Below, in pieces: positions 1 through 64,000 of a stretch of 64,000 nucleotides of DNA. The position numbers were made by a program, and so were the translations under genes. The notes below the pieces were generated by a model. It did no database searches, had not been told where the DNA came from, and saw only the letters and a list, made by a program, of their open reading frames with translations. The first letter of the stretch is position 1; every line of letters starts with the position of its first letter. Origin of the DNA: Bilabrum cf. latius (Eukaryota); the NCBI GenBank assembly GCA_965178125.1, contig OZ237764.1, forward strand, positions 124,001-188,000, in the 5' to 3' direction.

Positions 1-310
1 GCGAGGTGTGGAGCGTTCTGACAATCTACAGCAACCGGTGGCATCCAGCGATTATCTGCATCAGAGCAAGTGGTTTCGGGGCACTGGCAAAGCATCATAC
101 CTAGATACGTTTTAGTGGCGTTGTGTCATCCCCACTAAGCTCCGCGCCACCCATCAGCAGTCGAAATGCTGCAGGCTCCAAAGGCAAGGGCAACACGGGG
201 TGCTTCTCTGCTACTTGCTATCGAATTGTCGCAAGCGTCGAGTCACTCGGCACCTCGATGTGGAAAGAGCCTTTCTCCTTGTTGTAGACGTCGATCACCT
301 GCACTCTCAT
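1..310 (-). CDS. Protein with N-terminal ubiquitin-like domain (partial, runs off the window start)
   Basis: ATG at 310: MRVQVIDVYNKEKGSFHIEVPSDSTLATIR(TAG)QVAEKHP...FRLLMGGAELSGDD resembles a Ubl beta-grasp pattern. Reads through TAG at 218-220; probable intron donor GTATGA at 100. Confidence 0.55.
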
Positions 311-480
311 GTCATATATTGTGAATATCCACGGCCCAGTGTACACGTTGCGTGCTCTTTCACGCATCATCCTGGTCAAATCGGATCTGTTGCGTGCTCC
401 GCTCTGCATCCCAACTTCGTTCGTCTTGGAGGCAGCTTCCTTCCATAGCTACTTACTTTGCAATTGCATCTAGGATCGAG

Positions 481-3400
481 ATGGAAATGAGCCACAACGA
501 GCTGAGAGAACTCCAAAACGGTGAGCTGCCCGTTGTCTACTCCCAACTCCGACTCATTCGTTTGGATGGCCTAATACAGCGGAACATAAATGGTAGAATA
601 GATTTCTTAGTTAGGCATTGAGGCAACGATTGGCGCCAAGTTGTCGCATAGTTAGTGGTCCGTGGAACTGGGTGTTTCCGTTCGGTTGCAGTACGCTCTT
701 CTTTCGCAGGCTTCGTGGGGTACAAGGTGAACAAGAAAGGAAACTACAGCAAAGTGAGAAAAAATTGTCTAGTATACTAGTCAGAGCTTCGCCTGCCTTG
801 CATTTAATACCTCTAAGCTCCACACAACACGGCGACGCAGAAAGCTGTGTTTTTTACATCTGACGGTTGCAAGCTGGGCTGGAAGCCATCTAAGAACGCA
901 ACAGAGTACAGTGAGTGGACATGCACGAGTCTATTTTGTAGCTATCCGTACTCAGAGGTTCCACCTCGATGGTGTCCCGCTTCCCTACCCGCAGTCCCGC
1001 TGCAAGAGATCGAGCATGTCGCCGGGATCACACACGATGATAGCTGGCAGTCCTTCCTGGGAACGTATGCAGCAACTCTGCGGAAGCAGCTCAGCACGGA
1101 TCGTGCTGTTGATACTCCCGACTCCACGGTGGTGGAGCTAGAGAAACTGGGAGGAGCAAAGGGCGGCTGGGCCTCGTGGGCCGCCAGAGTGTTCCGCCTC
1201 CGCGGCAGGGAGCTCGCCTACCACAAAGGGTCCCTGGACCAGCCCATGGCAGGCACCATAGACGTCCCACTTGGCACAGGGGTGGAGACGCGCGGGGAGG
1301 GCCCCGTCCACATGCTGCTGCGGCCCCCGGCCCAGGCGGAGGGCCCCGTCAGGGAGCTGAGGTCCAGCGACACTGCTGCGGTGGCCAGGCTGAGCGCAGC
1401 GATCCGGACCTCGTGCAGTGTGCCGCTGCACCGATGCCTGCAGCAGGCTGCATCCATTGCGGAGGGCAGGGGCATGGAGCCAGATCGAGGAGGAGGTGCA
1501 CCTGGCTCTGGCTCTGGGTCGTCGCTTGAAGCCCGCGCGACGAGGGCGGGCACTGGCACCGGCATCAGTGCACTTGGTGCTGCCGCCAGCCGCTGCATAG
1601 GCGAAGCGGCCGGGAGCACACCCCGGGAAGCAGACCGGTCGGAGGACTTTGCCAGCCTCATGGGCCGACGGGCGATCACAATCGTCACACGCCGCCGGTC
1701 TCTCCGTCTGGTGGCCAGCAGCCCTGCCAACGCCTCCAGGCTGCTGTTCCTGCTGTCCTCGCACCTCATGCAGAGAGAGCAAGGAGGGGCCACTGGATCC
1801 GCCGGGAGAGGTCCCACTGTGCCTGGCCTGGATGCCGTGCAGCGGGCCTCTGCAGTGCTGGCGCGGCCCCTGGAGAGCGAGCCACCGATCAGGGCCTCGG
1901 CTGCGGGGGTGCTCCTGAGGGCGGGGCGGGCATGGGAGGCGCTGGGGCTGGTGTGCACCCGCGGCACGGAGGGATGCCCCGCCTGCATGGAGGTGCGGGG
2001 GCGGTGCGCGGCGGGGCTGGTGGACGGGCTGGTGGGGGGGGAGAGCAGGGAGGGGGTGGCGGCGGGGGGGCTCGAGGCGGCTGCGGCGTGCTGCAGGATG
2101 ATGCCTCACCGATCGGAGCTGTGGGCCCTGCTTGCGAGGTGCGCCGTGCAGGCGGGGCACGTGGATCTGGGCGAGCGGATTGGGGCGTCGCTCGAGGCCG
2201 AACTGGGGGCGGCAGACGCGACAGGCGCCCTGGCTCTGGGGTGGGCCCTCGGGGCCGCAGAGGACGCAAAGAAGAAGGTCCGCGGGGCAGGGCTGCTCCT
2301 TAGGGCTCACAGGGCCGACCCGCAGTGGGTGGAGGCAGGGGCGATGGCTTGCACGCCGAGTGAGCTCGGGGGCTGCAGCTGTGGCTCAACGGATCTATCG
2401 AGCTTGCAGGCGATGGTGTTGCGGCACGGTGTGCTGGGGTCTTGCGCTGCCAGATGCGCCGCGCTGGCCTCTCTCTCCTAGGGGCGGCCGGAGGAGGCAG
2501 TGGCTTGTCTTCGGCCCCTCGTGGATGGGAGCACTGCCGACAGGGGCGTGCTGGCGCTGTTCTGCTCGTCTCTACTGGCGGTAGGAGGGGCCGAAGAGGC
2601 ACTTGGCATGGCACGAACAGGGCTGCAGACTGGGGCTGCACCTGGAGCAGCTGCAGCAGCAGCAGCAGGGGCAGCAGCACAGCTCGGGCTCGACAAGGCC
2701 AGTGGCCAGAGAGCACTCACTGACCCGGACACTGCCTGGTTGCTGGCAGTGTGCGCTCGGTGCGAGCTGGCGGCGTGGCTGGAAGACGTGGGTGCAAAGC
2801 CTTGGCCCGAGGTGGGGCCCATTGACGGAGCTGAAGACGACCCGGACTACTGCAGTGCGATGCAGCTGGTAGAGCGGGCAGAGGAAGTAGCTCGGTCCAG
2901 CGGCAGTACACACAGTTAGACGGTGGCCGGGCTCGCTCTTGCGGAGTGTCTCATCGTCGGGGGCAGGGAGGCAGAGGAGGCCAGAGGGGCTCTGCCGGCG
3001 GGGGGGCTGGCTGTCAGGTGTGGGTATGCGGGGGACCTAAAGAGGCTGCGGGGGCTGCTAGGGATATCAGCGGAGCAGGAGCAAGCCGATGCAGGGGAGG
3101 AAGGGCATGGGGATGTACGCGAGAAGGACGGAGGGCATGGGGATGTACGCGAGTAGGACGGAGGGCATGGGGATGTACACGAGAAGGACGGAGGGCATGG
3201 GGGTGCACACGAGAATGAGGATAAGGCCGTGGGCGGCCGTACTGTGGAGGGTGCTGTGGATGTGGACGAGGAGAAGGATGAGAAAAAAGCCGATGGAGAC
3301 GCGGAGGAGCGACGGGCTCAGTATTTCGCGAAGATGCGTGCGGCCAAGGAGGAGGAGCGGGCAGCGAAGGCGAAGGCGGAGGCGGATCGGCTGGCGGTGA

Positions 3401-3597
3401 TGAGTGAGGAGGAGCGGGCGCAGTACGAGGAGGAGAAGAAGGTAGGGGAGAGGATGAAGAAGAAGCAGGACAAGATGCTGAACAAGATGGCCGGCACGTA
3501 TGGGAGTGCCCGAGCGGTTGGGCTGCGAGGCAGGGGGCGAGGCAGGGGTAGAGGCAAGGGCAGGGGTAGGGGTAGGGGCAGAGGTCGGGGGCGATGA
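481..3597 (+). CDS. PH-domain protein with alanine-rich helical region and C-terminal charged/RG-repeat tail; small 5' exons
   Basis: ORFs 847-2481, 2500-2919, 2923-3156 and 3229-3597 share one frame and are separated only by TAG; TGA at 3595-3597. PH-like motif LEKLGGAKGGWASWAARVFRLRGRELAYHK. Probable first intron 521-579 (GTGAG...CTAATACAG); exon structure before 847 is uncertain. Confidence 0.7.
3101..3213 (+). repeat. 30-bp coding tandem repeat (about 4 copies, EKDGGHGDVR-like)
   Basis: Unit gagaaggacggagggcatggggatgtacgc; one copy has TAG in place of AAG at 3154-3156 and the frame continues. Confidence 0.9.
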
Positions 3598-7490: not shown

Positions 7491-10412
7491 TCACCTGCAG
7501 TGCGCGAACGTAGCCACATCGGAGACAAGCAGATCAGATGCCCCCAGCGCTAGCATGCCAAAGTAGCTCGCCCTATCCTGATCGCCCGTTCCTGTCCCGC
7601 CACTATCTGCCTCTCCCTCTCCCACTGCCGTTGCCACTGCCTCCTCGCCCTCTTCGCGCTCCTCGCCCTCAGCCTCGGCCTCCCACTCTCTTGCATCCCG
7701 AGCGAGCCAGAAACTGCCCCACGGACTTGTCTCTTTTCCAGCCGCGGCCTCACCACCCACATCCCCATCCCTGCGGTCACCTGCCCCATCACCTTCCCCT
7801 GGGCCCATCTCCACCCCTAGCCCCTCGAGACAGCTGGACCCCCCCCCAGGCAGGTCCTACGGTCCAACGGCTCCCGACAGACTGCTCATCTGAAGCGCGG
7901 GTGGGGTCGAGCCCTACCACACGCTGCCGCTGCTGCGGCTACCACCACTGCCTGCATCCCCTGCACGTCCAGACACTGCGGTCCGGGACCCACTCGACGA
8001 CCCACCCTTCCCCTGGCAGGGCTATTCCACCTCCTAGTCTACTGAGTCCTGCCTCACTACATCGCCTGGTACCTCATCAAAGCTGCCCGAGCCCACGGCA
8101 TGCGAGGACGAGGAAGAGGACGCTCTCGGGACGCTCCGCCCCTGCCACAGCGTGAGGCTGTCGGCCCTGATGCCGCCCACAGCCTGCAGCGCGCACTCGG
8201 GTGCATCGCGTTGCAGCGCATCCCACGCCCGCCTGGCCTGGCTCAGACCCGCCCCCTGCAGCTCCTCGCACACCGTCCCCGTGGACCATCCCATGTGTGC
8301 CCTGGCCGCCGCGCTATCCCCGTGCAAGTGGTCGCCCACATACATGCACCTGGCGTGCTGTCGGCGGGCGAATTGAGAGGCAGACACGCTGCCGGGGGTC
8401 TCTGCCCCTGCATCGGCGCCGGGGGGGCTGAGCGATGGACCCGCCACGCCCGGCACAGACTGCAGCGCACTGCGGCGCTTTGACCCCGCGGCCTCATCCG
8501 CCTCCGCCGCAGTGAGCCCATGGTATGCCTCCCCTCCAGCCGAAGCCCCCGCCCCAGTCCCGCCCTCGTCCGCTCCCAGCACGCCCTCCACCACCCCGGA
8601 GTCGTGCGCCCCCCGGTCACCTGCGGACCCAGGTCCAGACCCAGACCTAGACCCAGGAATGGCTCCCTGCTCCTCGATGGGGTCCGTCACGGTGACCTGC
8701 CTGCCAGCCGAGGGAACAACGAGAGGCCTATCCCTAGGCACCTCGCCCCCCGTGCCCTAGATCTTCATCTTCATCTTCATCTTCTCCCCGACGCTGGCGC
8801 TGCCCGCCGCTCGACCCGGTGCCTCCTCACTGGCAAGCACCCGCAGAGTCGATCGGCCCGCCCCTCCAGACACCACACCACTCCCGGCAGCCACCGGCGG
8901 CAGCACCGCCCCGGATACCACGTGCCCAGTCCCGTCCATGCGCACCCCTCGCCCCCTCGCCGCCAGCCTCCCCCGCAGCGTGCCCCTCTCTGATGGAGGC
9001 ACACCGGAGGTGAAGTCGTCCGCGCCATCGTGCCCTGCACCTGCACCTGCACCTGCCCCTGCACCCCACTTGAGGCTGTCCAGCAGCACCTGCACCGCAG
9101 CCGCGCTCCCCTCCAGCAGCACGTCCCTGCTCTCCGCTACAGCGAGAAGCTCGCCGCCGGGCCCTGGCTCCTCCCGGAGCTCGTCGGGCGAACGTTCCTC
9201 CCCTCCCTACTTTTGTTCCCTGCAGAACCGCACCAGCTCCGCCGCTGCCCTAGCCTCTTCCCCCAGCCGGGCCCGCAGCTCCGACTGCCCTCCCAGCCCC
9301 CAGCCCAGCCCTCGTCCAAGCGCGCCGGCACGTGCAGGGGGCAGAGGGGAGTGGACGGTGCGCGGGAGCCGGACGGCCCGCCGCCCCGTGCGCCAGCCGT
9401 CATCGGCCATGACCTTGAAGGGGCGAACCTTCGCGAACCACCCCCCTTTCCCCGTGTCGAAGAGCATCGAGTCGAAGCACTCGCAGTACCTCTCCCCCAG
9501 GCAGAATCGGAGAAGCAGGCGCGCGTACCTAAAGTGCGAGTTGGTCGCAAGCACCACAAAGACGCCGCGCCGCCGCAGGTCCAGCAGCATCTCACGCACG
9601 TGCGGCCGGGCGAACAGGAAGTCCTCGGGTCTGGCCTGCATGCCGGTCATGAAGCGGTGCCGGGGCGCCCCCAGGGCTCCGATGTTGTCAAACACCGCGA
9701 AAAAGGCCCGGAACAGCGGAGGTAGCAACCAATCGTAGCTACGACGTGGTTTCGAATCCCCTGGGCCTGCCTCATCGCTACCTGTGCCGGCAGTCGGATC
9801 GCCCCCACTGGCACTGGCAGCCCCGCCGCCGATGGCCTCCTGGGCGCGCTGCACGGCGTCGTTTCGCTCCTTGCCGCTGGTCTTGTCAAAGCTGGAATCG
9901 GCGCCCTGCGTGTCCGCGGCTGCTTCCGGTGTGAGCTCCCCCGCATCTACTGCCGCCACGAGGTCCTGGATGACTAGCACCGCCGGAGCGTCGAAGTACG
10001 TCACGAATGCCAGGAACGACGGGTGCTTTTCGCGGGAACGGAGAAGGTCAAAGCCATCCCAGGTGCGCGTTTTGCCAAAGTGCTCGACTATCTCACCGGG
10101 GGTCAGCTGCCGTCTTCCCCTTGAAGCCCTGTCCACGCGCCCATGAGCATCCAGCTTCAGCACAAGGCCAGACGCAACATCGAACACTAATCCCTTCTGC
10201 TAAGCCTAGTGATCGTACCCCTTCTTGCTCCGTCGGAATGATTCTGGGAGCGCATCGAATATGCTCTCGTATATCGCTCGCCCCAGTGTTCTCAATCGGT
10301 ATCTTGCGATTGTGTGATCTAAATCCAGCAGCACGCAATCCTGCCGGGCCAGATCCGACCTTGCTGGACTACCAAGCCATAGCACTGCATCAGATAATTC
10401 TGCTGAAGCCAT
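7491..10412 (-). CDS. HAD-superfamily 5'-nucleotidase (NT5C2/NT5DC-like), about 973 aa with low-complexity insertions
   Basis: Motif I LLDLDHTIARY, KGLVFD, LATNS, motif IV YVGDHLHGD...GWST..VCEEL and C-terminal WGSF. All fragments lie in one frame, joined by TAG (10206, 10200, 9207, 8757, 8034, 7914, 7857); TGA at 7491. Confidence 0.88.
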
Positions 10413-10651
10413 CCGAGTTAGAAATCAAAGGTGAAAAAGATTAAAATGCCCCAGTGAGCCGCTGTGGCGGTACTACAGTACACTGCACCCAGCTGCACAC
10501 CGACTGGTGGTTGTTGCCCAGGCATATCGCCGGGCTTGAACGCCACCAGTGGCGCGCTTGAGTGCCGTGCAGCAGCGCGTTGCCCTCCTCGAGGCGTGGC
10601 ACAAGCATCCTGCCAAGTCCAGATTCAAGCAGCGGTGAGCCGGCATCGACA

Positions 10652-12769
10652 TCATCCCGGCGCCTGCAGCAGCACATCGCTCTCCTCCTACTAGGCATCC
10701 CTTCCCAGCTCCTGTCCATGGCCCAGCTCCTGCTAGAGGGCGGCAGCGCCTCTATTTCCGTCTAGTGTGCGCGCCCTGCGTCGCTTCGAGGCCGCGGGCA
10801 GCTGCACGCTGCCGCCGACACCAGCACTAGCCCCGACACCGCTGCCGGTGCCAGCCCGTCCCGGAGAGTCGCTCGGCTCCAGCTCCACGCCACCCAGTCC
10901 ACTCGTCACACGATGCACCCCAAATCCGCCCGACCGCCCCGCCTCTAGATCGCTCCCCAGCAGCCCCGTCGCATACCCCCCCCTGCGCTGTTCCCCGGAC
11001 AACAGCCTCCCGAGCGGCCCCGCGCTCCCGCTCAGCAACGAGTCAGACCCACTCCTCCCCCGCCTTGGGGTCAGCGTCCCCGCCAGACTCATGGCCAGCG
11101 CCATGCCCCCTCCCGCGCCCCTCGACTCCTCCAGCATCCTCAACCTCCTGTCGTCACCATCCCCCAGCAGACTGCCACCGTCACTCCCCCCGTCGCTGCC
11201 ATCCCCGTCCTGCAGCCCTCCCCCACCCCCACCCACGCCCCCCAGCCCCAGCCCCTCCGCACTCCCAGTGCTGCTCAGCCTCCTCCTCGACCTCTGCATC
11301 GCGTCTTTGGCCACCTGCTCCCAGTCCGTCTGGATCGTGAAGTAGAGTCCTACGAACGCGACCACTGTGTATCCAATCAGCATGGCCAGCCACAACCCGT
11401 CCAGTCCGAGATCCGTCGTGTAGATCAGGACGAAGGCGAGGGGCACGGCAACCCCCCACGCCCCTGTAACGAAGCTGATGGCCACGGCCTGGGTGCGGGA
11501 CTGCCCCTGCAGCAGCGCCATGGCGTAGAAAAACACCGCGATCACCGAGTATGCGGGCGCCAGCGCTGTCCTGCAGATCCTAGCCATGAGCCTGATCACC
11601 TCCTCGTCAGAGGTGAAGATCCGGCCCACCTAGTCCGCAGCTGCCAGCAGCACGATCCCAACCACGAGTCCGAAGATCATTGACACGAACAGGTTCAGCC
11701 GCCCCACGAACTTGGCGAGCTCGATCCTGCCCGCCCCGAGGTTGTAGCCCACCCGTATGGTGGTGCCCTTGACGCTCCCGTACAGGCACGAGGTCAGCAG
11801 GAAGAGTACCTGCATCGTGGACTAATGCGCGGCCAGGGCCTGCTTCCCCAGCCTGGCTCCCAGGAAGGATATGACCTGCAGCTGGAGGTTCTCCACTAGG
11901 TTGCCCAGCATCAGCGGGAGCGTCTACCGGACAACCATGTCGTAGGCGCGCGCGGGACTGAAGGCCTCGGGCAGCCAGCTGCCTATGCCGTGCTCGAAGC
12001 AGCGCTTGTGCTTCCCGTCCCACAGCCACATGTACGCGATGGCCAGCACCAGAGCCAGCCAGCGGGTCACCGAGGTGGCCAGCGGCGACCCCACGAACCC
12101 CAGCCCCTCCCAGTGCCCAGGCACACCGAAGATGAACACCTGGTTCAGGCCAATGTTCACCGGGATCAAAGAGAGGTTGATCCACAGGGCGGGATACGCG
12201 TTGCCCAGAGCCTGCAGCGCGTTCTGCAGCACCGTGTACCACACGAAGGGGATGAGGGACAGGCAGTAGGTCTTGGTGAACAGGCCAGCCAGGTGGCTCT
12301 CGCTCTCGGGGAAACCGACTGCCAGCAGGATCGGCTCTGCGAATCCCCAGGAGATCAGCACGGGGACAGATGCCACCGCGATGCTCCAGATGCCGATCGT
12401 CGTCCAGACTGCCACCAGTCGGTAATTCCCCGCGCCAGCCGCCTAGGCACAAAGGGCGTTTACGCTCGCTGCATACGCTTGCCAGAGCGCAGCCGAAGTA
12501 AAATCGCAGAATACAAGCGCCAGAGCAGCGGCAGCGAGTTCTTCCACTCCGAGACGACCCAGAAAAGCTGTATCTGTGGTCTCTAGGATGATTCGGCCGA
12601 GCGACGCGGCACTTACCGGCGCAGCGATTCCGGCCCAAGACCACGACTCGGTGCGCCACCCTTGCGGTAGGGTCATGCGTCCCCAACATATGACGGTACG
12701 TTCGCCTTCATGGCTCAGATCCGTGCCTGTCTAAGGGCTGCTGTCCGCAAGCAGCTCCATGCTGTCCAT
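10652..12769 (-). CDS. MATE family efflux transporter, about 705 aa
   Basis: FLGRLGVEELAAAALA, ALCA(TAG)AAGAGNYRLV, LAAH(TAG)STM, IRVGYNLGAG, GLGLDGLWLAM. Eight in-frame TAGs (12731, 12443, 11924, 11822, 11630, 10733, 10691, 10688); TGA at 10652. Confidence 0.93.
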
Positions 12770-13377: not shown

Positions 13378-13461
13378 TCACGGCAGCAGCGCCGTCACGA
13401 AATCGTCCCAGTCCACCGCCGATGTGCCACAGCCACAGCCGCCCCCGATCGACGCTGCCGG
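13378..13461 (-). repeat. Degenerate copy of the 3' end of the gene at 15899-23185
   Basis: 13391-13428 matches 15921-15958 (1 mismatch) and 13430-13461 matches 15980-16011 (1 mismatch), with two internal deletions; the copy includes the stop codon. Confidence 0.85.
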
Positions 13462-50291: not shown

Positions 50292-50388
50292 GCCTGCAGT
50301 TTGAGTGCTACCGCAATCCCTTGGTGAACAGTCACATGGTGTAAAACATCTATCATTTAGTCATCTTGAAATGTTCTGAAAAAACGCA

Positions 50389-51003: not shown

Positions 51004-51181
51004 GACTGTTATTTTTTGTAATGGCTCGGTAGCTTGGTTGGTGTGCACGCCGAGTTTGCCCACCAGTTGCGTGTCACTAAATGACAATACCAGATTTCGG
51101 AAACAGACGATTTTGGACGCAAAGGCTGATGGCGGCGATTGATTGCATCGATAACACATACTAATGTTCCAAGTGATGCAA

Positions 51182-54100
51182 TTATCGCCTGATGATCACG
51201 CCGTGAAACAGGAATGACGCCACCCGGTACCACAGAAGTGAGGGTAAGGCGGCGGGCACCGTGCGAGAGCTGACCTGCTCGGCATCACCGGCTGCCTCCG
51301 ACTCCAACGACTCGAGTCCAGCTGAAGACGATATCGCAGGCTATGAATCAACCGCGCCGCTCTTAACGCGTCCTCCTGCTACGACACTGCCTAGGCGCCC
51401 TGCCGCCTGCACCAGCTCCTTCGCCTGGGCGCGCTCCCTAGCCGCGATCGACAGCTCTTGTAAAACGTCCGCCTCTCGCCGCCGCATGGCCGCCAAGTGC
51501 CGCAATGCGATGCGCATCGTACTATCACTCCCTGCATTATGAACTTCACACTGATCCTTTGTCTACCCGCCCCCTCTTAGATCGGGACCTGCAGCTTGCC
51601 CAGCTGCGTGTTCCAGTCGCAGGGCACCCTCCCTCGCCGAGTCAGCCTCGCGCTCTACGCGAGTGGCCAAGCCGACAGCATCCGGTAAAGGGCCCCCATC
51701 ACTAAGCACGCTGGAACCCTCTTTGCATCGCACGCTGACTGATCCGTCAAAATCCGAAGCTCCACTGCCAGGCGCAGCCCTCGCGCCCTCGGAAAGCCCC
51801 TCTTGCTCCTGCTCCTGCCGCACCGGAACTTCCAGCCGGCCCATCACCATCCGCACGCGCCGATCCGCCCCTTGCTGCAGGCGCATGGCAGTCTGAACCA
51901 GATAGTGTCGCTCTCTCAACGCTGCTGAGTCCACGCTTTGAGACTGTGGATGCGACCTCACCGACAGCAGGGCCATCAGCTGCTCCTTCTCCAGACCAGA
52001 AAGACACGGGACCATCGCTGACCGGCCCCACAGCCAGACGCGCTGCACCACCTTGAGCGGCGGGATGAATCGCGATACGCGAAAGAGCGATGGGTGGGCT
52101 GTATTTCGCAGCATCGCGTCAGAAATGGGAGCCACTCTTCGCTCTGCAACTGCCTGGTCCAGCAGTGCAGGGACGCGCATGTGGGGTCTGCTGACGTGAG
52201 AGTACATGGCAACAGAGCGCGCGACTGCAGATAGGTACAGGCCGTGGCGATGCATCACCCTCTAAGAGACCGACGCGGCCCTCTAGCGCGGGCTACTTTC
52301 GTACTCACGCATGGCTTGGCAGGCTGCTCCCAGCGGGAAAAGGACTCGCGTAGCGTGCTACTCTTCGGGTCTTGTTGCAGGTCCAGACACAGGCCTGCTT
52401 TGGAGTATTTTGCCGTTTGATGCACTGGCAGCTGCGTCCAGAGCAGACCCATCCTCACAGAAAGAATGCCCACCAGTGCCCGGCTCATGGGCGAGTCCGC
52501 TGTCACCGCCACCCATGGGTCCGTGAAGTCGACTTGCTGACCGTGGCCCCAACAGCCGGCGAGTATACCACGCAAGCAGCACACGCAGTTCAACTGTGCT
52601 GTTAAGTATACCTCGAGCCGCAGCTCGGAGGCTTCTTTCGGCCCGTTCAATGAATTCCTGCCTCCCTTGCTCGCCGGTTGCCTGCTTGATGGGGTTTACC
52701 CTGCACAAGTCGGACACAAGTGCCTAGTGGCTCGTGGGGTCGAGCGAATCGATCGAGCTGTCACTCTAGCAGCTGATCGGCAATTGGTACAGCTGCACTG
52801 GGGCTGCATACCTAGCTGCTTCGGGCGGGACCGCGGTCATTCCAACCCAGCAAGGAGGGGATCCTGGGATCCAGACTGTCGGCCTGATGCGCAACTGAAG
52901 GTCTGCACTAGCGCCCGCGCCTGCACCCGCACCTGTACTCGCACCCGCACTCGCTACACTCACACTTTGTAGCCTGCGCTCGGTCGCCCTCAGCCACCTA
53001 CCAACAAACGAGTGCTGCAGCAGCCTCTCGCCGCCCGCCATGCTTGAAGGCACCCAGCTACTATCTGGGCCGAGGTCCCACGGCTCAAGCACGTTCCGGT
53101 CGATCGGGCTATCCGAGGTATGCGGTGAATCCATGCGTTCATCGCTCGCTCCGCATTTTGTAGCTGTTGCACAGTAAACTGCATCGGCTCCGTCAGTAGT
53201 TGCGGTAGGACCAGCTGAACCTGCACTCTAGTCTCCTTTGCCCTCAGCCGAGTGGGCGGGCCTGGGCACGACCTTGGGTCCAGCAGTAGGGGTGTGGTCG
53301 AACCAGAGAGGTGACGAGCCGCCTGGGGCCGGGCGCACCTCAAGCGCCCTGCCCCTGGCCATCGAGGCGATGTCCTCATCGGATCGGCAGAAAGGCACGA
53401 TGCAGAAATCGCTGAATAGGAACCTCGGGCCCCCGGAGCCCCTCGCTGCTCCCAGGCAGATCTCGTCCCTTGAAGCCTCCAGCGGGCCCACCTACTCCTG
53501 GGCATTGCCCACGGAGATCCGCAGCTATTGGATGTTATTCGCATGGAGGAAGATACCTTCTTCTGCATCTGCTTCCTTAGACTAGATCGCGATGGCAGGC
53601 AGCGCCCCCAGCGGCACCCGTCCCTCCCGATCTACTCCTGCCGCAGTGGCCAGCCGGGGATCCAGCCGGAGATGCACATCCCTGCGATTCGAATCGCACA
53701 GATACGCAGCCTTGATATCGTTGCCGATATGCTTGCCGTTGTGGAATATGTCCATCTGACGAACGACTGCCAGTTTCAGAAAGTTGCCCTTGTCGAGGCC
53801 AGCGAGGCTCCGGCGAGCTGCGGCGGCTGCTGAAACATGATCTCCACGTGAGCCCGTGGGTGTACCATCGGTACCCTGCCTGGCCTCCGACACATTAGAA
53901 GCTTCGTTTAGTATTTCCCGTATCCGAAGTTTCGCTAGTTGGCCCGTGTCACCATTGCTGTCGCTACAAACTACCAGGACTACAAAGTTGCTGAGGCGGA
54001 ACGCCCAATGGATCCAATCGCGAGATGTGCACACGTTAGGAACTTCGGCACCAGTGACCTTATCTCCGCACATGGAGAATTCGGGTACCTTGTGCTAGCG

Positions 54101-54367
54101 TGCCAAGCAATGCAAGCCCCTTCGCACCATTTGAGCCTTCCGGGAGCTAACGAAAGTGGTAGTTGGGAAAGCAGACAGTTGGGTGCAGACAGTCCAGTAT
54201 GACAGCGTCCAGCTAGGAGCAAGAGGGGTCAAGATGGCACCAGACGGTTTTATTTGTATTCCGTGCCATCCTAACCCCAGGCTCTCTATGGAACCGATCA
54301 CGCACTATTTCGTGCCGGAGTCCGCTTCTATTGCGAAAGGCTCCAGCGCAATTGGGGCGGCCTGCAT
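51182..54367 (-). CDS. Hypothetical protein, about 1061 aa
   Basis: ORF fragments 54095-54301, 53582-54073, 53228-53491, 52766-53134, 52358-52717 and 51563-52258 share one frame joined only by TAG; ATG 54367; first non-TAG stop is TAA at 51182. Confidence 0.7.
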
Positions 54368-54490
54368 GTTAAGATGAAGTTATTATGGCAAGAGACATAA
54401 CTATGATGCTGTTGAAGCTGCCAGTGGCAGTAAACTGGGTGCTCCAAGTAAAGGTTCAGGAAGATTCCGGTTTGCTTGAGCCTCGGCAAG

Positions 54491-54870
54491 TGATGGTTGG
54501 TAATGTGGATCTGTCGATCAACCGCTCAATGCTTCGCTCCCCCAGCACTCTCCCTCTCCCGCCACGCGCCACTCGTGCGCCGCTACCCACCGTCGCCCAC
54601 TCGTCTGTCGCTAGCACGGCCGTCTCCGTGCCGCCTAGGCCCGGCTGGCCGCTTTGTCCTGCCCTCAGCTTCCACTCTCGTACCTAGTACCTGCTCCTCG
54701 TAATCTCCTCCTTCCGTGGCGCTTTGGTTTTGGCTGGTGCTTCCCCGGGCACTGGGCAGGCGGCACGGACCTTTCAAGCCGCTATGGGGACTACCTGCCA
54801 CTGGCCACGGGATCTACACTGGGCCCCCCTTTTGGCTGTTCGCCCATCGAACGCCGCAAGGAACACCCAC
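54491..54870 (-). repeat. Ngaro split direct repeat B2 (380 bp)
   Basis: Appears identical to 56309-56688. Confidence 0.95.
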
Positions 54871-56153
54871 GCCGCCCCGACCTAGGGGACGCCACCACGC
54901 AAAAAGAAGAAAAAATCTTGAACTCGATCGAGTTAGGGCATCACCGCTCGCACATCCCGCCCAGCCCACCACGCTCGACACGGTCCTGTATGCTCACCGC
55001 AGCCCCAGCACAGTCGTCACCCGGTCCGCTCCTATTCAGGCTCCCATTGCCTTACCCTCTGTGAGGATACGGGGTCCGGCTGCTGTCCGCACGTTGCCGT
55101 GCCTCTTGCAGCACCACAGTGGTCCTCCACTGCAGCGTACGCTGTGCAGGATCTCGCCTCGCTCTCTCGGTGGGTGTCGCCGGTGCGACTGTCCCAGGGT
55201 CGATCCGAGATTCAGGCTCTCCTCTCGGCTGTGCAGGTCACTCTGTCCCCCTTCGGCCACGGAGCCATCCAAAGGACAGAAGTTTCCTGGGCCCGCAACG
55301 CGGTTCTTTGTGCTTCCAGAAAAACAGAGGTGCTCCACATGGGGGATTTTACGGCACGGACCACACCTCTGCTCCCAGTCTCATGACCACCTCACGCGTG
55401 GCCACCTCACACCCGTCCCCACTGTTGCAACCGGGAGGGTGGGTTGCTTCCGACCTATAGCCGGATTTACAGCGATCAACATGAGGCACGGACCTCATAC
55501 TGACCGCACCCACCCCTACTCCCACGCCTACTTGACTCAGCCAAGTCCCTGGCCCCCCAAGCCACCCACCAACGGTCCTGCTAACAGTGGCCATCGGCAC
55601 CAGATGCGACCACGGAGCCTCATCTGGTTGGTGAAATGGGATGGTGGCAAAGGCCACCACCAGTTCGTCCACGTGTTCTAGATGGCTAGACGCACGCAGC
55701 TTCCCTGGCCCCGTTCCGTTGCCCTCCGCAACGCTTAAATGTTGGTAGCTAGGTATGAGTGTTGGTACCCTCCGAATCTGCGCCGCCATCCTGCGTGGGT
55801 GCCACGTGGTCCCCCCGTTGTCAGGGGGTCCACATGAACAGAAAAGAGGGCTGGTTCATGCTGGTACTGAGTGCGGAGGGAGGAGGAGCGGTCTGCCTCC
55901 GCCCCCCTCCCAAGAGAATATTACACACACTACCGGGCAGCAGTGACACACACACACTTACCCGCCCCTAAGACGCCCTGTCTCGCTGAGTAAACCTTAT
56001 CCGCCTGGCACCCCTCCCTTCAGCTGTAAGCCCCTCTGTTGTCCGCCAACTACTGGTCCCCCCTCACCTCCCGGCCTCCGCCGCGATGCCGCCCCATCCA
56101 TATCCGAAGGAAATGGGGCCAACAAGACAAGAAACAATTCTATAAAAGTAAAA

Positions 56154-56308
56154 ATTATTTCCTTTATCTTCTTCTGAATTCCCCTAAGTGAGAGCGCTGG
56201 TCTCGCTCAGCTCGTACTCGGAATTGATCCGATCAGTATACCACTATCGGCCCAAACATCACTGTACATGGATGCTCTGTATTCGTCAGTAGGGGTGCCA
56301 TTGAATCA
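56154..56308 (-). repeat. Ngaro split direct repeat A2 (155 bp)
   Basis: Appears identical to 62676-62830 and abuts B1 directly. Confidence 0.95.
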
Positions 56309-56688
56309 TGATGGTTGGTAATGTGGATCTGTCGATCAACCGCTCAATGCTTCGCTCCCCCAGCACTCTCCCTCTCCCGCCACGCGCCACTCGTGCGCCG
56401 CTACCCACCGTCGCCCACTCGTCTGTCGCTAGCACGGCCGTCTCCGTGCCGCCTAGGCCCGGCTGGCCGCTTTGTCCTGCCCTCAGCTTCCACTCTCGTA
56501 CCTAGTACCTGCTCCTCGTAATCTCCTCCTTCCGTGGCGCTTTGGTTTTGGCTGGTGCTTCCCCGGGCACTGGGCAGGCGGCACGGACCTTTCAAGCCGC
56601 TATGGGGACTACCTGCCACTGGCCACGGGATCTACACTGGGCCCCCCTTTTGGCTGTTCGCCCATCGAACGCCGCAAGGAACACCCAC
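56309..56688 (-). repeat. Ngaro split direct repeat B1 (380 bp)
   Basis: Appears identical to 54491-54870. Confidence 0.95.
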
Positions 56689-56696
56689 TGGCCCAG

Positions 56697-57935
56697 TTAG
56701 AGCCCTGAATCCCGTTCACCCCCACCACTGCTCACTGGGCTCCGGTGAAGCTCCCTGCGTTGGGATTCCCAAATCTTCAGAAGTTCTGGGATGGAGCCAG
56801 CTCCCACCATAGCCCGAAGAATCCCACTCCTCGTAACCCTTGCCGCTTCCATCAATGAGTAACGATCATACACCGCTGGCATGTTGGGCAGAGACCACCC
56901 AGCCTGGCCGTGCACGTACTTCTCGTCCTTGGTTGGGTCCGTCTGGCGCAATGCTGACACTCCCGCACTCTTGAAGGCGTACACACCCTCCCCCTTGCGG
57001 TGCACAGGAATCCCTTGCGCTGTTATCCACTGCAGCGTGGCACTGTGCGCAGCCCGTGTTCGAGAGGCGAATACTTCCCCGCGCTGCCCTTGTGTTGGCT
57101 ACCGAACTGATACCCACCACTTCAGCCACCGATACGGGCACAACTCCTCGAATCCATCCGGCAAGCATGGAATGACCGCTGGCGGGCGCTGCTCGGGGTT
57201 GCCGCCGAGCACCCGCGACTTGTACCGCTGCCACCCAATCAGGGCCACGGGAACAACCTCGTTGTCATCAGACGCTGCAGTCCACTCTATCTCCCCTATT
57301 GCCAGATGCACCAGATCTGGCCACCGGGCCAAGCCACAGAATGTCCCCACATAGCAGCACATAAATGTATCGAGAACCGCTGGTGTTGAGTTGTAGTCCG
57401 CACGGGCCAGCGCAGCTGGGCCTTGCCACATCGAATCCCACTCTGCCTGCAGCTACCAGGCCATCATCACTAGTGCTCGCAACGTTACAGGGTTGTCCAC
57501 CAGGACACGTAGGGCACGTACCGCGTCCGGATCCGTCGCCCCGGCACATCTACGCTTGTAGCCGAGCAGGGCCAGTTTGACCTGCCTGTACTCCACGTCT
57601 GCGAGTGGGGTACGCGGGAACTCCGCTGACCTGAACCACGCCGTTTGCGCTTGGAACAATCGCAACACTGTGGCATACTTCAACCCGGCGGCGCACTACT
57701 CCGTCAGCAAAGCCCACATGGCCTCCACCGGATCCCCGACCTCAAGTTCCGCCTGCATGGTCAGATTCCGCCTGCGCGCGTCCAGAGCTCCCTTGCCGAG
57801 CTGCTGACTCTCCTACAGCATCAGGGTCCTAGTCGCCGCCACCGCTGCTCGCCGTTGTGCCGCAGCACTTGAGCCTGCTCGTCCAGTCACTGGGATCAGC
57901 TCCCCAAATGGTCCTGCGAAGATGAAATGGTGCAT
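56697..57935 (-). CDS. Ngaro ORF3 tyrosine recombinase (about 412 aa from the first ATG)
   Basis: FCGLARWPDL, ELCPYRWL, YAFKSAG, AGWS..MPAVY. Four in-frame TAGs (57813, 57696, 57453, 57099); TAA at 56697; overlaps the end of ORF2. Confidence 0.85.
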
Positions 57936-60141
57936 GAAAAGTTGAGTCAGATGTCGCCCTTGCCGCCGAGACAAACCCCGTTTTGCCCACGCGCTGCCCC
58001 GCCGTCTACACCAGTTGACCAGCACCGTCCTCCACCCTGCTCAATCTATCGCATGCCACCATGATCGGTGTACTTCGCCTCTACCACACGGGGAAGATCA
58101 CGTATCCCAAGTTCTCAGCCAGCCTTCCAATCTCTCGCAGCTCATCTCGCTACCCAGCCTTCATCGAGCCGCCCTTCCGCAGCAAATTTGGCAGGGCTTG
58201 ATTGTCTGACAGCACGAAGAGCGCCTCTGGGCAAGTCTGGCTCCTCGCCAACTAGCCTGGTCCTGACAAAAAAGCTCGTAGTGATGCTAGTTCGCGTGCC
58301 GTACTGGATAGTAACTGCATGTCCTCGTGGAAACCCATTTGCATCAAGCCAGAATCACCATTGCCTCGGCGCCACATTGCACCCAGTCCATGGGCTGACG
58401 CGTCAGCACAAAACACGGATGCTCTCCCCTCCGGCAACGGGTATATCGGTGCAGCTGCTGCCGCTGTCAAGATACCGCGGTCCCTACATGTCAGCCACCA
58501 CTCAAATTCCTCGTTGAACTCTGCCGTCCAGATGTGCCTACCACCTTTGCGAGCCTTTGCAGCCGCCTAGTATATCGCAAACACGTGCTGCGAAGCGTGG
58601 GGGATTACTGCCGCAGCCGCGCCCAACTGTCCTGCCAGTTTCTCCACAGCCTTGACCGCCAGCGCACTCGTTGCTAGCATGTTGAAAGCTCGCATTCGCT
58701 CAACGGTCCTCAGCACTGCGTGGATCCGTGGCCATCGATCCGAGCGCAGTGTCACCTTCAAGTGGGCTCCCAGGGTAATCTTTAGCCCAAGGAACTCAAT
58801 CACCTATGTTGGAAAGGTAAGTTTGCTAGGCTATATCCTCATGCCAATCCCCCGCGCTACAAGCACGGCACACCACAACAACTACATAGTGCGGGCCTCC
58901 GTACGTGCTGACAGAAAGCCATCATCAATGTACCCAAAAGCCCAATGTGCGGTGCGCAGTCGCACCCCCGCTAGACACTCTGCCAACACTACTGATGCGA
59001 CAAAACAGCCCATTCTGCAACCAAACGACAAGACCACAAACTAAAACATGCTGCCACCCACTCCGCGAACTGCCATCCATCGCTGCAGCCCCGGTGCCAG
59101 CGCTATACTATGATATGCCGCCTTGAAATCGAAGGCTGCCCCCCATTCGTGCCTGTCACGTCCCACTCGCTCTGCTAAATGCCGAGCAAAATCACCATAC
59201 CGAAAACGCAAGTCAAGGAATGCCTCATTCGCGCCCGAGCGCTTCATATCCGTGACTAGGCGCTGCTTGCCAGTCGTGTCCTCCCGCTGCACCAAGCGTG
59301 GTGTCTGACCCTCCCGCTGCTGTACCTCGATTGCGGTCCTCTTGGCAACGAACATAGGCGTCACCTAGACCGCGGCGCCCTCCACCGGTCGAATCTTGCC
59401 TGCACTCGCTGCTGCTTCCACGAACGGGACTACATCCTCCTCGTCCGCCGGCAAGTCCTTCGGGTCAGCCCGTACCGGCTGCGCCCCCAACACCTTCAAG
59501 ACTGCCTCCGCCCGAAGCCCATGTCGTGCCAGTCCAACAAACCCCCGGCCCGCTACACAATCGGGCTCCACTGCGCCCCGCGCCCCGCAGCGTCGACAAC
59601 GAGCCAAATGTGCCTGCCATGCTCCACGAGGTGACAGCGTACACGGCTAGCGTGCTGCCCATCGCTCCCCCTGCTGCAGTTCGCCCCTACGCTCCCCGTG
59701 TGACAACGTTCCATACCAGACGTCCAAAGCAGATGATGGTGCCTAGCCCGGTGGGAATGACCGCAAGTCAATCTTGTCCCGCTTTGCCAGGCATCGTGCC
59801 CAAGCCTACCACATCCCGTCCGCACCCAATGCTGACGGTGCATCCCCAGTCATCCCCGCTCCCGCATCACCGTCATTATCCACAGAATAGCCGGCTGCTT
59901 CCATCTGCACCTCGTGCCATCGTCTCGAGGGGCCTGCAGATGCAACCTAGTCCAACAATTCGTCCGCGTGTTCCATGATGTCCGTCACAATGCACCGCCC
60001 ATCCAGTGTCCGCAGGCTCGGCTCACCACGCTGTAGGGTCGGAGTCTTCTGCTGAGCCAGGATTTTTTGCGCTGCTTCCGAAGATAGTGCACATGCCTAC
60101 ACTACTGCAGCCCTTCCCCTGGCTCGGGCCGCGTCACCCAT
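57742..60141 (-). CDS. Ngaro ORF2 reverse transcriptase + RNase H (about 799 aa)
   Basis: FDFKAAYHSI, F(TAG)FVVLSFG, GYIDDG, PT(TAG)VIEFLG; RNase H ADASAHG, RELASL, SDNQ, ACDRLSR. About 16 in-frame TAGs; TGA at 57742. Confidence 0.92.
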
Positions 60142-62677
60142 TCCCCGCTAGTCGGCCACTTCGTCTTGGGGAGGTACGGGGCTCCGCCTACTTTTTGGGC
60201 CCCGATGTCGTCCCTTTGTGGCGCTCTGACTCCTGCTGCGACTCTTGTCCACCCGCACTCGCGCTACTGCTGCTGCTGCTGCTGCTGCTGCTGGCCTTCG
60301 CTGACTACCGTTTTGCCGCTGCCCCCGCTCCTCCAGCTGCGGCCCCATGCGCCTTTGCCACCCGCTTTGCTCGCTCCAATGCTGACTTGTCTATCGCGGC
60401 TGTCACATCCTCCCACGCCATAGCGCTATGGTTGCCTGCCGGATTCAGTCCCAGTAATTCCCACGTGGGCCCCACCTGAGTCTGCGTCATCCGCAGCGGG
60501 GTCTCGTTCTCGCTCCGCAACTACCACAGTCGAAGCACCGCAGGAGTATCCATTCTCCCCACTGGTGCCACCCTATGTATCAAAATCATGCGCAGAGCAG
60601 TTGCTAACACGAAATGCTGACCCGTATTGGCTGTGTCCCCGTTGCCTCCACCTGCCGTGCGGACTGCTGCCGCATGAAGGACCATCCCTAAACCCAAAAA
60701 CATTCTTCGCACTGCAATCTCCAACGCCTCGTGAAGCTTGCTCATTACTGCCCTGGCTTCCGCATGCTTATCCTGGTGCAGCAGTGTCGCAAGTTTGATA
60801 ACCACCTTCAGCAACGACGTGCTCCCTGCCACGACCCACTCGAGCGCCCCACACACCGATCTGGTCAATATCGTGGGTAATCGAAAAATGTTGCCTTGTT
60901 CCAGTTCTGCCACTCCCGACAACACGTGCTACCCGCACTTACTCGCAAATTGCCTGATCCCGTCCGGCATGAGCAAATCACCCGCCTCCTCCAGCACCGG
61001 TGCCACATGAAAGCTGCGGCCAGATCCTGACTCCCGGCGAAAACCAGCCGCACTCGCCATAGAAGCGAACATTATCTGCGCGGGGCGTTCAATCCGAAGT
61101 AACGAAATCTTTGCCTTGTCCGCACTCGTCAGCGCCACTGAGGCCAAGTCCTTAGCTCTCTCGCCTTCCTCCCCGAGTTCGGCCAAATACCGTGCACTGT
61201 CCCTAAATTGAAGCACCTCCTAAGACCGTACGGTGTCGTAGAACAAAGAGTCAACTCCCTTCGCCGTGGGAATGGAATTATGCACTTCCTTGGCGCCGTC
61301 TCCATCGTCTGCTCCGACCTGGCCCTGGTATGGTGACTTCTTGCAGGCGCCGGCTGACGACTTAATCGCCTGGGTGGAGTGCTCGGGCCGGGCATTTAAC
61401 TCAAGCGCAAGGGCACGGAGCAACTACAACGTACCATTGGGCTCACCCGATGCCATGGCCGCAACCGCCTGTTGAATTCGCTTGTCGATCGCGTCACTCG
61501 CGGTCGCCTCTCCTGCTCCCGCGGATGCTCCCTCGACCTCTTGCTCGCGCCTTGCCGCCTTGGTGCGACGTTCCGAATCCGCCACAATGGCCTCCCAGGG
61601 AGCTTGTGCTTCCCCCACCTCTTCCGCTCTCCCCCTTTTTCCCAGCGTTGCGCCCGAGATGGTGCCCATCGACGCCTGCGCCCCAAACACCGCGCTGGCG
61701 CCGCGGCTTGCCGTTGGACCTCCCGCTGGTTTGCCACCCGCCCCAGCATCGGCCGCAGTCACTCCACCACGGCTGAATCCGCCCCCAAAATCAAAGAGGC
61801 CCAGCTCGCTCGGCGGATGGCCTGAGGTAGCAGTCGCCCCTGCACCGGCCCCCCCGCTTGGGGCAGGCAGTTTCCACCCAAACCCGCCACCGTCCATGAT
61901 GCCCCGGCCCAGTGAGTGCGCTCCCATCGGCCCCCCGGCTACACGTTCAGTCCTTGACCCCGTGAATGGTGCTGTTGTTGATGCCCCGGATGGTACCGGG
62001 ATCACCGGTGCTCCCCAGAGTGGGGGCACCCCATTGCTGCCCGTCGCATCTTGGCCTGAATTTCCACCCGTCGCCGCGCTCGCCGACGAACTGCTGCATG
62101 TCGGCTTCGGCATCGCATGGATCAGCATGTTGGGCAACAGAGCATCGAACATTTCGTCGAGGAAGGGGATCGTCCACGGTGCCACCCGGGCATAGCCGAA
62201 CAGGGCCGCACGTGCTGCCCACGCTGCCTGCTGTGGCGTTACACCACTCTGTAGTGGTTGCTGCAGGCATTTCCAGAGCTCACCATGGTCCTCGGGCATC
62301 AGATCGTCCTTTGAGAACCCTGCTGCCGCTTCCAGAGCGCCACGCAGGCCCGATTCCACGTCTGGCGTCGTGGTCGGTTTGAACACGCCCATAACGGCAG
62401 CCCCTGCGCCCAGGGAAGCGACCGGCGTGTGGCCGCGTACGCAGCTGCCCAACAGAGCCCGCTGCGCATCTGCCCCTTCTTTGTTTAGCATGTTCACAGC
62501 CTCGCGTACGACAGGCTCCGAGAAGCTCGACATGTGTTCAACAGCCATACCTTGAAACACATCGAAAACGCCACCCACAGCGTTCACCCTCCGCCTCACC
62601 GTTGGGGCCATACGAGTGGTCATTCGCGCCACGATCGCCCGGCTTTGCTTCCATTGCGCACTCTGCTGGCTGAGCAT
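60134..62677 (-). CDS. Ngaro ORF1 (gag-like by position), about 847 aa
   Basis: ATG at the inner edge of A1. Six in-frame TAGs (61424, 61220, 60929, 60521, 60305, 60188); TGA at 60134. Confidence 0.8.
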
Positions 62678-62830
62678 TATTTCCTTTATCTTCTTCTGAA
62701 TTCCCCTAAGTGAGAGCGCTGGTCTCGCTCAGCTCGTACTCGGAATTGATCCGATCAGTATACCACTATCGGCCCAAACATCACTGTACATGGATGCTCT
62801 GTATTCGTCAGTAGGGGTGCCATTGAATCA
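62676..62830 (-). repeat. Ngaro split direct repeat A1 (155 bp)
   Basis: Appears identical to 56154-56308. Confidence 0.95.
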
Positions 62831-62869
62831 CGGAGCGCCCTGATTCAAGGCCCCTGAAGCTCCTGGCAA

Positions 62870-64000
62870 TCACTCCACAGGCTCACCCCACGAACTATTG
62901 TACGTCTCTGGTGTAAATCCGGCGAGCCCCCATTTCTCCTTCATGTCCTGCAACGTGGGCCCCCCCCCGTCTGCGGCACCAGACTTCTCCTCCTTTTCCC
63001 TCTCCTTCTCCTTGCCCCCTTCATCTGCAGCAGCGTCGTCGGTCGCCCGCATGCCAGCTGCCTGGCGACTATCCACGTCCTCTGCCCCCGCCCCCACGTA
63101 CCTGGGATCCACCTCGTCCCCCTTTGGCTGCCACCTCACGTCGCAGCTGATCCTCACCTTGTCTGTCAGATTGGCAGTGGACATGTGCAGCGTGCGCATC
63201 CCGAACACAATCACGTCTCCCGCCCTGTAGTCCCCTGCTACCCACTGGCACTGGCACTGGCCCGCATCACCATCCGGACCCCCCGACGATGGCGAGGAGG
63301 TTGCAACCGCCTCGATCTCGGCGGGGTCCTCAGTAAACCACCCAGTGCCCTGCATCCCCTCCCTCTCCTGGTCCATCGAGCCGTATGTCTCCCGCAGCAG
63401 ACTCAGCCCCGCGCTCCTGTGCGACCCCTTGCACATGGCTAGACCCCCCATTTCAAGGGGCGTGTCCCCCATGGGGATCCAGGTGGTCAGCAACCTCGGG
63501 GAGCCTCGACTCATGTACACGTGGTCCATGTGCGCTCCGGTGAAGCGGCGGCGGGGCACGCCGCGGAGCCACTTGTAGTCAAACGTGAGCAAGTCGTCCG
63601 GCTTTTCCCCCAGCACCGTGGCCACCGCAGCCCGCAGGTCCTCATGCTCCACGCAGGCGAGCACGTCGGGCCTGGCAGTCTGGACCCCTTCCATGAACGG
63701 AACACACCCAACGCCGCACCTCGCCTAGAGCTGAGCGTCCTCCCGGCCAAAACTGTCACCAAAATCAAGTACATCGCCCTTGACTTTAAATTCTTCCAAC
63801 ACCGCCGATCTTGCGCGCAAAACGGCTTCGCGAGGAATCACACCACGCAAGAAAACGAAACCGTCCTCGCCAAAACGCTCGCGGAGGCTAGCACCAGAAG
63901 CGTCTTCTTCGAGCAGCAATGAGCTGTCTGGAATCTGTCCGAGCTTCGAGGAGGGGAAAAGGACCGTTCGCTTGCCGAGCTAAATATGGCGTTTTTTCAC
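62870..64000 (-). CDS. Phytanoyl-CoA dioxygenase (PhyH)-family 2OG-Fe(II) oxygenase (5' end outside the window)
   Basis: DGFVFLRGVI, TGAHMD (HxD), TWIPMGD, GGL...GSH, GDVIVF..TLH, RIS. TAGs at 63980 and 63725; TGA at 62870. Confidence 0.9.

Follow-up and report, generated by a model that had tools for sequence, protein, structure and literature searches.

Does the nuclear genome of Bilabrum cf. latius read the stop triplet TAG as an amino acid? The question arises from a 64,000-nucleotide stretch of its assembly (GenBank GCA_965178125.1, contig OZ237764.1, positions 124,001 to 188,000; hereafter the window), in which open reading frames (ORFs) for recognizable protein domains are repeatedly interrupted by TAG. 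We find it highly probable that, at the scale of this window, UAG encodes glutamine in the nuclear code while UGA and UAA serve as stops. A first-pass annotation, made from the letters alone, had proposed a sense UAG best fitted by glutamine, with TGA and TAA as terminators, and this proposal held up in frame counts, in log-odds scores at homologous columns and in controls that treated TAA or TGA as sense. The conclusion that TAG is a sense codon follows from in-frame, homology and residue tests; ORF length alone was dropped as evidence, since in GC-rich DNA a sense TGA extends the ORFs further still.

The window is eukaryotic nuclear DNA, GC-rich (~62% GC; 59-69%), with few and short introns. 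We base this assignment on GT..AG joints in contigs of three sequencing runs (X6, X7 and X8) and on a eukaryotic gene content that includes PNKP, LRR and TPR-thioredoxin proteins, a cN-II-type 5'-nucleotidase and a retroelement putatively of the tyrosine-recombinase type. In all, contigs of four runs from three studies (X5-X8) were compared with the window, and X5 is DNA-like.

With TAG taken as sense, we obtained a set of 22 frames free of TGA and TAA, which together occupy 82% of the window (17,702 codons). Under the standard code no stop-to-stop frame exceeds 785 codons; once TAG counts as sense, the longest have 2432, 1767, 1663, 1088 and 1065 codons and tile the window without overlap, one per locus. 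The commonest stop triplet of the window's DNA is TGA. Within the 22 ORFs, TAG occurs 124 times in frame versus 123 and 156 times in the other two frames, whereas the corresponding counts are 0 versus 270 and 294 for TGA, and 0 versus 49 and 43 for TAA. TAG is therefore not avoided in frame, while TGA and TAA are fully excluded. The glutamine codons of these ORFs (n = 813) would comprise 532 CAG, 157 CAA and 124 TAG, giving TAG a share of ~15% as an upper bound. All of the previously listed TAG positions that we rechecked lie in the frame assigned to them, including the four at conserved sites, and the coordinates given for TAGs in glutamine-rich runs match codon positions.

To score the DNA between TAGs, we used a codon-usage model trained on five TAG-free, Pfam-supported genes and applied it to inter-TAG segments of at least 40 codons. 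The ORF frame scored best in 66 of 87 segments, compared with one third by chance (binomial p 6e-16). As a control, we scored the segments of every ORF of 400 codons or more; they fell in the ORF frame in 79 of 132 cases when TAG was sense versus 38 of 153 when TGA was sense, so that ORFs built on a sense TGA are non-coding by this model. The longest frame, of 2432 codons, had 8 of its 9 inter-TAG segments placed in the ORF frame.

Reading through TAG also restores protein domains. Nine domains had been reported as reassembled from ORF pieces joined across TAG, and all nine were found again: 5_nucleotid/HAD, MatE, PNK3P, Thioredoxin, RVT_1, PhyH, IU_nuc_hydro and DUF455 with Pfam, and GH86 with structures in the PDB. 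At least 23 TAGs lie within stretches aligned to Pfam or PDB entries or in coding sequence backed by spliced contigs (MATE 4, reverse transcriptase (RT) 10, 5'-nucleotidase 2, nucleoside hydrolase 2, TPR 2, PhyH 1, DUF455 1, GH86 1). The four TAGs of the conserved MATE core (12443-12445, 11924-11926, 11822-11824 and 11630-11632) fall in ungapped blocks when aligned with human MATE1 and two plant DTX chains from the PDB. In the 5'-nucleotidase, two TAGs (10206-10208 and 10200-10202) lie within the first Pfam stretch and the GDH..GD HAD motif comes after four TAGs. Residues 30-108, 273-310 and 693-731 of this protein match PDB 2bde, and its N-terminal 336 amino acids alone score 87 bits in Pfam versus 107 bits for the whole ORF; the C-terminal 120 residues alone gave no Pfam match, leaving a supposed C-terminal motif unsupported. 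The nucleoside hydrolase has one TAG in its exon-1 frame (32386) and two within the Pfam envelope (32616 and 32751), and the PhyH domain spans residues 45-284 (Pfam E 1.8e-13). For GH86, Pfam gave only a Porphyrn_cat_1 match below threshold, and homology over the catalytic region came from the beta-agarase 8h97 (E 5.3e-30, query residues 25-505) and from 5ta1 and the GH86A porphyranase 4aw7 (E 4e-23 to 4e-20).

We next asked which amino acid TAG specifies, using Codetta-like summed log-odds over the 13 TAG columns covered by at least 10 sequences, nine from RT and four from MATE and thus from two genes only. For RT we collected 377 relatives (E<=0.001), and 10 TAGs lie within the region aligned to 149 of them; examples of TAGs in this ORF are 59041, 58882, 58831, 58804, 58567, 58150 and 58081. 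Glutamine (Q) scored +9.3 over the 13 columns, followed by H (-4.6) and A (-5.2), and was the top residue in each gene alone (RT +5.8; MATE +3.6). The same score called 50 of 53 sense codons correctly. Q was the commonest residue in 4 of 13 TAG columns and in 5 of 25 CAG/CAA columns, compared with 14 of 859 other columns (Fisher p 8e-5). Glutamine is enriched at TAG columns, a point on which the first-pass annotation had staked the reassignment, and TAG therefore behaves like a glutamine codon.

Four individual TAGs had been singled out as standing at glutamine sites, and each proved to do so. Q is the plurality residue at MATE codon 167 (12443; 7/14 homologues, and 3/3 PDB MATE chains), at MATE codon 374 (11822; 6/14) and at RT codon 454 (59041; 36/128), and the majority residue at RT codon 533 (58804; 84/126). 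The column of the MATE TAG at 11630 is mixed. Elsewhere the alignments were less informative: TAG columns of the nucleoside hydrolase and GH86 are variable in PDB alignments with few chains, and the PDB alignments of PNKP and PhyH stop short of the TAG columns. No PNKP homologue was matched among proteins of 971-3093 residues. For DUF455, 249 pattern matches in a genome contig collection yielded none that was confirmed, and there was no PDB relative.

Several observations weigh against this conclusion. The whole argument is based on ~22 genes in 64 kb. The ORF frame was not the best in 21 of 87 inter-TAG segments, mostly low-complexity stretches, 5' leaders and ORF overlaps, and the in-frame count of 124 TAGs is an upper bound, as at least two and probably four of them are intronic. 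At the level of residues, the TAG at MATE codon 340 (11924) faces L in 8 of 14 homologues and no Q, the residues there being L, I, V or Y; RT codon 524 faces N in 47 of 127 homologues; and RT codons 751 and 774 are hydrophobic, mostly I, V or L, in distant homologues. Neither ARAGORN nor Rfam found a tRNA gene in the window, so the 64 kb hold no tRNA-Gln(CUA); the Rfam scan returned no rRNA or other RNA gene either, and the eRF1 gene is absent from the window. The treatment of X6-X8 as RNA is a program's guess, with X6 marked 'probably DNA', and their transcript origin was deduced from spliced joints. Lastly, the window alone leaves termination at some UAG codons possible and cannot show that UAG never terminates.

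This last point bears on the alternative that survives best, though we consider it improbable: that UAG is dual, encoding glutamine inside genes and also acting as a context-dependent stop near the mRNA 3' end, as in some ambiguous-code ciliates. MATE carries TAGs at codons 737, 751 and 752, close to the TGA at codon 764 and 180 codons beyond the domain end. Among the 22 ORF ends we counted 18 TGA and 4 TAA; the first-pass annotation had 19 and 3, and while its TGA majority stands, the absence of TAG ends that it reported is circular, because it is built into how the ORFs are defined and provides no independent evidence. Against a dual role, in-frame TAG is not depleted relative to other frames. 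In addition, eight genes have their last domain close to the C-terminus (D-3-phosphoglycerate dehydrogenase (PGDH), DUF1295, dienelactone hydrolase (DLH), DUF455, both thioredoxin copies, PhyH and LRR), and downstream of that domain each meets a TGA before any other stop-like triplet, TAG included; in so small a sample, and with contigs that do not mark mRNA 3' ends, this argues only weakly. As for TAA, a sense reading adds no more than ~30-36 codons to the coding ORFs, and the sole merge occurs at the TAA at 40057-40059, which lies in a GTAAGA splice-site consensus.

It is very unlikely that UAG specifies an amino acid other than glutamine, such as Glu, Lys, Tyr, Ser or the Leu that it encodes in the rhizarian exLh. 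The hydrophobic columns at MATE codon 340 and at RT codons 751 and 774 would fit such a residue. However, Q occupies both of the TAG sites, codons 751 and 774, that are shared with the nearest RT relative (P0023, 77% identical); three other relatives (P0015, P0016 and P0019; 37-57% identical) have Q at codon 524, and P0025 has Q at codon 612. Moreover, Q leads over both genes together, while the RT/MATE log-odds of the competing residues are all negative (L -8.6/-2.4; E -2.0/-5.3; K -3.1/-3.8; Y -11.3/-1.2; S -7.3/-1.9).

Even less credible is a standard code in which the TAGs sit in short unannotated introns or are edited from U to C before translation. The window does contain real GT..AG introns of 107-209 nucleotides (nt), which the first-pass annotation overlooked, so that some of the TAGs it took as in frame, and probably one TAA, are intronic. 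A joint at 46989/47199 was found in contigs of X6, X7 and X8, joints at 41688/41796 and 52187/52309 in X6 only, and none in X5. The putative intron 52188-52308 contains two TAGs; its removal would shift the frame into a TGA at 51978, whereas without splicing the frame is open over 3.2 kb, and the joint may represent a minor or regulatory splice form. Two more TAGs, the first two of the PNKP ORF (codons 18 and 25; GGTAG and GATAG), resemble 3' splice sites near 40000 and are probably intronic.

Most of the evidence runs against introns or editing as a general explanation. The four MATE core TAGs and the RT TAGs stand in ungapped alignment blocks with no intron-like insertion, and real introns carry TGA or TAA in most frames. 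The X6 contig that joins 41688 to 41796 continues to 44186 without a difference from the window and keeps the TAGs at 41667 and 41798, one lying 20 nt upstream of the joint and the other 2 nt downstream of it. When the TPR exons are joined, both of these TAGs lie in a single open frame with a Met start and a TPR-like repeat. The expectation that TAGs would be neither spliced out nor edited is thus borne out by a contig with a GT..AG joint, X6-X8 being RNA only by the guess noted above. The runs differ from the window at 19 listed positions, all in the retroelement region and 17 of them inside its ORFs, and none falls on a TAG codon; this includes the A>G or T>C differences of the transcript-like runs, none of which touches a retroelement TAG codon and all but one of which also occur in X5.

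Pseudogene decay or systematic sequencing or assembly error can be dismissed: although a repeated retroelement, a class prone to decay, is among the richest carriers (18 TAGs), decay would also have produced TGA, TAA and frameshifts, whereas we saw 124 TAG versus 0 TGA and 0 TAA, TAG occurs in single-copy genes (MATE, 5'-nucleotidase, DUF455, PhyH and TPR-thioredoxin), the TAGs recur in contigs of four runs, and 7 of 8 copy differences within the RT ORF are synonymous. The latter count refers to differences outside ORF overlaps, in the frame that holds the TAGs; in the downstream and upstream ORFs of the element, 1 of 2 and 2 of 3 differences are synonymous, respectively. A systematic base error at TAGs, a concern raised at the outset, was not supported, as contigs of all four runs agree with the window. 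Within the 1065-codon ORF, X6 contigs across the TAGs at 51341, 51563, 54095 and 54305 show 0 differences from the window, and the same holds for a contig of X5 over 49712-52844. We therefore retain the reading of UAG as glutamine in what follows, and the features discussed are collected in the table below.

Table. Positions of genes, exons, introns and frames in the 64,000-nucleotide window that bear on the reading of TAG
Feature	Position	Strand	Remarks
5'-nucleotidase ORF, cN-II type (HAD)	7491-10424	-	8 in-frame TAGs; 5_nucleotid E 1.4e-30, 3 stretches
MATE transporter ORF	10652-12943	-	8 in-frame TAGs; Pfam MatE E 1.9e-40
GH86 glycoside hydrolase homologue	13293-15761	+	TAG 14028-14030 in aligned catalytic region; ends TGA
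Long frame without known domain	15899-23197	-	2432 codons, 15 TAGs, no TGA/TAA; tandem TAG pair 21602-21607
Multi-pass membrane-protein ORF	23359-26625	+	6 TAGs; ends TAA
Multi-pass membrane-protein ORF	26791-31782	+	11 TAGs; ends TGA
Nucleoside hydrolase, at least 2 exons	32145-33560	+	IU_nuc_hydro E 3.6e-13; PDB 4kpn, 1yoe
DUF455 gene	33635-34600	-	3 TAGs, 34346-34348 within domain; ends TGA; PF04305 E 2.3e-66
PNKP-like ORF (phosphatase and P-loop kinase)	34753-40056	-	14 in-frame TAGs; PNK3P E 1.9e-22; PDB PNKP
Only TAA joining two long ORFs	40057-40059	-	Inside CAG/GTAAGA 5' splice-site consensus
TPR-thioredoxin exon junction	41667-41800	+	TAG 41667-41669; intron 41689-41795 (GT..AG, 107 nt); TAG 41798-41800
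TPR-thioredoxin second exon	41693-44158	+	Ends TGA; Thioredoxin E 4.4e-17
DLH gene intron	46990-47198	+	GT..AG, 209 nt; DLH E 3e-41
PGDH main exon	48651-50291	+	Ends TGA, 21 codons past ACT domain
1065-codon ORF	51182-54379	-	13 TAGs, no TGA/TAA; other two frames hold many; ends TAA
Putative intron in 1065-codon ORF	52188-52308	-	GT..AG, 121 nt, two TAGs; one X6 contig, shorter side 30 letters
RT ORF, retroelement putatively of tyrosine-recombinase type	57742-60402	-	18 in-frame TAGs; RVT_1 E 2.3e-10
PhyH dioxygenase ORF, runs past window end	62870-64000	-	TAG 63725-63727 within Pfam envelope

The retroelement occupies 54491-62830 on the minus strand and consists of a gag-like upstream ORF (60134-62728), the RT ORF and a downstream ORF (56697-58040), which gave no Pfam match, so that a recombinase is at most putative. 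The element has split direct repeats that are 100% identical (54491-54790 = 56309-56608 and 56154-56308 = 62676-62830). DIRS-order elements have a recombinase ORF after the RT ORF, split direct or inverted repeats on their flanks and no integrase; the present layout looks closer to PAT/Ngaro-type elements of this order than to DIRS1-type inverted repeats. All four runs have contigs over the element, at a word depth far above that of neighbouring genes. A search for shorter RT relatives returned only 4 near-identical pieces. The public RT pieces P0017, P0027, P0047 and P0165 (32-104 residues, 95-100% identical) begin or end exactly at window TAGs, and standard-code gene calling therefore already fragments the genes of this organism.

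Near 40000, the TAA at 40057-40059 sits in the 5' splice consensus that is also seen at the introns supported by contigs, and from the sequence it appears to be intronic. The BRCT-like ORF at 40057-41538 and the PNKP ORF lie in the same frame and are separated only by this TAA within CAG/GTAAGA, and for this reason they probably belong to a single gene, as exons of a BRCT-PNKP fusion. Downstream, the window contains a tandem duplication of ~1.3 kb (43217-44491 versus 44645-45948; copies 1428-1457 bases apart and 97-98% identical), which repeats the 3' half of the TPR-thioredoxin gene and gives rise to a second thioredoxin ORF (44600-45586). Contig cover is thin over 44168-45501 in all four runs, and the tandem copy is possibly an assembly artefact.

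The PGDH gene has the strongest third-position GC (GC3) bias among the genes, and its main exon encodes glutamine with 27 CAG, 0 CAA and 0 TAG. Its exon 1 (~48125-48316, plus strand) corresponds to Pfam 2-Hacid_dh profile positions 1-64, and exon 2 starts with an alanine run (48786-48832) at which contigs of all four runs break. A deep X5 contig (depth 393) shows a CA..AC joint skipping 1184 nt of PGDH (window 48929-50114; shorter side 22 letters); this contig most likely represents the PGDH of another organism in that run and is no feature of the window locus. Paralogy of the two multi-pass membrane-protein ORFs was considered and rejected, as they share a weak local match only (E 0.029), in which no TAG was paired with a residue.

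Homology searches say little about the host. A protein-cluster (Atlas) look-up of PGDH and DUF1295 led to clusters that are bacterial or mixed eukaryotic, without lineage resolution. MATE relatives reach 26-28% identity at best, and the only named one is from Rhodelphis (27%); among 5.8 billion proteins, JGI included, the top MATE relative reaches 28% identity. The closest solved relatives of the GH86 homologue, found here in a eukaryote, are bacterial (8h97, 5ta1 and 4aw7), and the gene could reflect feeding on red-algal polysaccharide or transfer from bacteria.

We then compared the inferred code with known reassignments. As described by Panek et al. (2017; PMC5304391), Iotanema spirale (Fornicata) reads UAG as Gln and keeps UAA and UGA as stops. 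The window resembles it in that UAG alone has moved to glutamine, with UAA and UGA as stops and UAG at glutamine-rich columns. In contrast, the main stop reported for I. spirale is UAA (104 of 119 scored transcripts, with 15 UGA; PMC5304391), whereas 18 of 22 ends in the window are TGA. The window is moreover 62% GC and encodes an oxygen-dependent enzyme (PhyH), which would be unexpected in an anaerobic fornicate. A UAG-only Gln code also occurs in Protocruzia tuzeti and two phyllopharyngean ciliate lineages described by McGowan et al. (2024; PMC11687900), where UAG is likewise uncoupled from a UAA that remains a stop. In the ciliates of that report UAA stops 86.9-98.3% of genes and GC is 27-54%, in contrast to the TGA-dominated, GC-rich window. 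Nor does the window look ciliate-like in its organization, with close-packed genes on a 64-kb stretch, a retroelement and GT..AG introns of 107-209 nt.

Other codes share part of this pattern. The UAR=Gln code (NCBI table 6) is listed by McGowan et al. for ciliates, hexamitin diplomonads, ulvophytes, Streblomastix and Amoeboaphelidium (PMC11687900); the window shares its UAG=Gln but differs in TAA, which is also Gln in table 6 and occurs 0 times in the 17,702 codons. UAG is Leu in the rhizarian exLh and in a ciliate lineage, and Ser in Scotinosphaera, according to PMC5304391 and PMC11687900. Like exLh and Scotinosphaera as presented there, the window shows UAG alone reassigned with UAA kept as a stop; unlike them, its TAG columns score far lower for Leu and Ser than for Gln in both genes. 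Different meanings of UAG and UAA are also reported in these two sources for one oligohymenophorean ciliate. The precedents given in the first-pass annotation were correct for I. spirale and for the rhizarian UAG=Leu code, while Protocruzia tuzeti, the two phyllopharyngean lineages and the UAG=Ser code of Scotinosphaera, which appear in PMC11687900, were missing.

A literature search, covering mostly the open literature, found no report of UAG=Gln from stramenopiles, nor one since 2022 from any other new lineage outside the ciliates. We tentatively raise the possibility, at somewhat less than even chances, that a UAG=Gln code with UAA and UGA as stops arose here once more, independently and as yet unreported. 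Its host would be a free-living, GC-rich eukaryote that is neither a ciliate nor a fornicate, perhaps a stramenopile as the first-pass annotation proposed, and UGA would be its main stop. By analogy with other UAG=Gln lineages, the decoder would be a tRNA-Gln whose anticodon, CUA, differs by a single change from that of tRNA-Gln(CUG). Such a tRNA would pair with UAG and not with UAA, and only a CUA anticodon could do so, if the argument made in PMC5304391 carries over. The same source proposes for I. spirale a tRNA-Gln(CUA) together with an altered eRF1, and here too an eRF1 with weakened UAG recognition might be expected to accompany the tRNA.

The known cases in which UAG and UAA have parted are few, and they show that the two codons are mechanistically separable. 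Another example, from a GC-rich genome with UGA as its main stop, would extend the range of conditions known for UAG capture and, if true, would be the first such code under GC pressure, where the rarity of UAG as a stop, and not AT drift, could have opened the codon to capture. The tRNA-Gln(CUA), glutaminyl-tRNA synthetase and eRF1 of this organism could then be compared with those of AT-rich lineages that stop at UAA. There is also a practical cost, as gene callers that use the standard code split its genes, and annotation, phylogenomics and proteomics of this organism need translation table 15.

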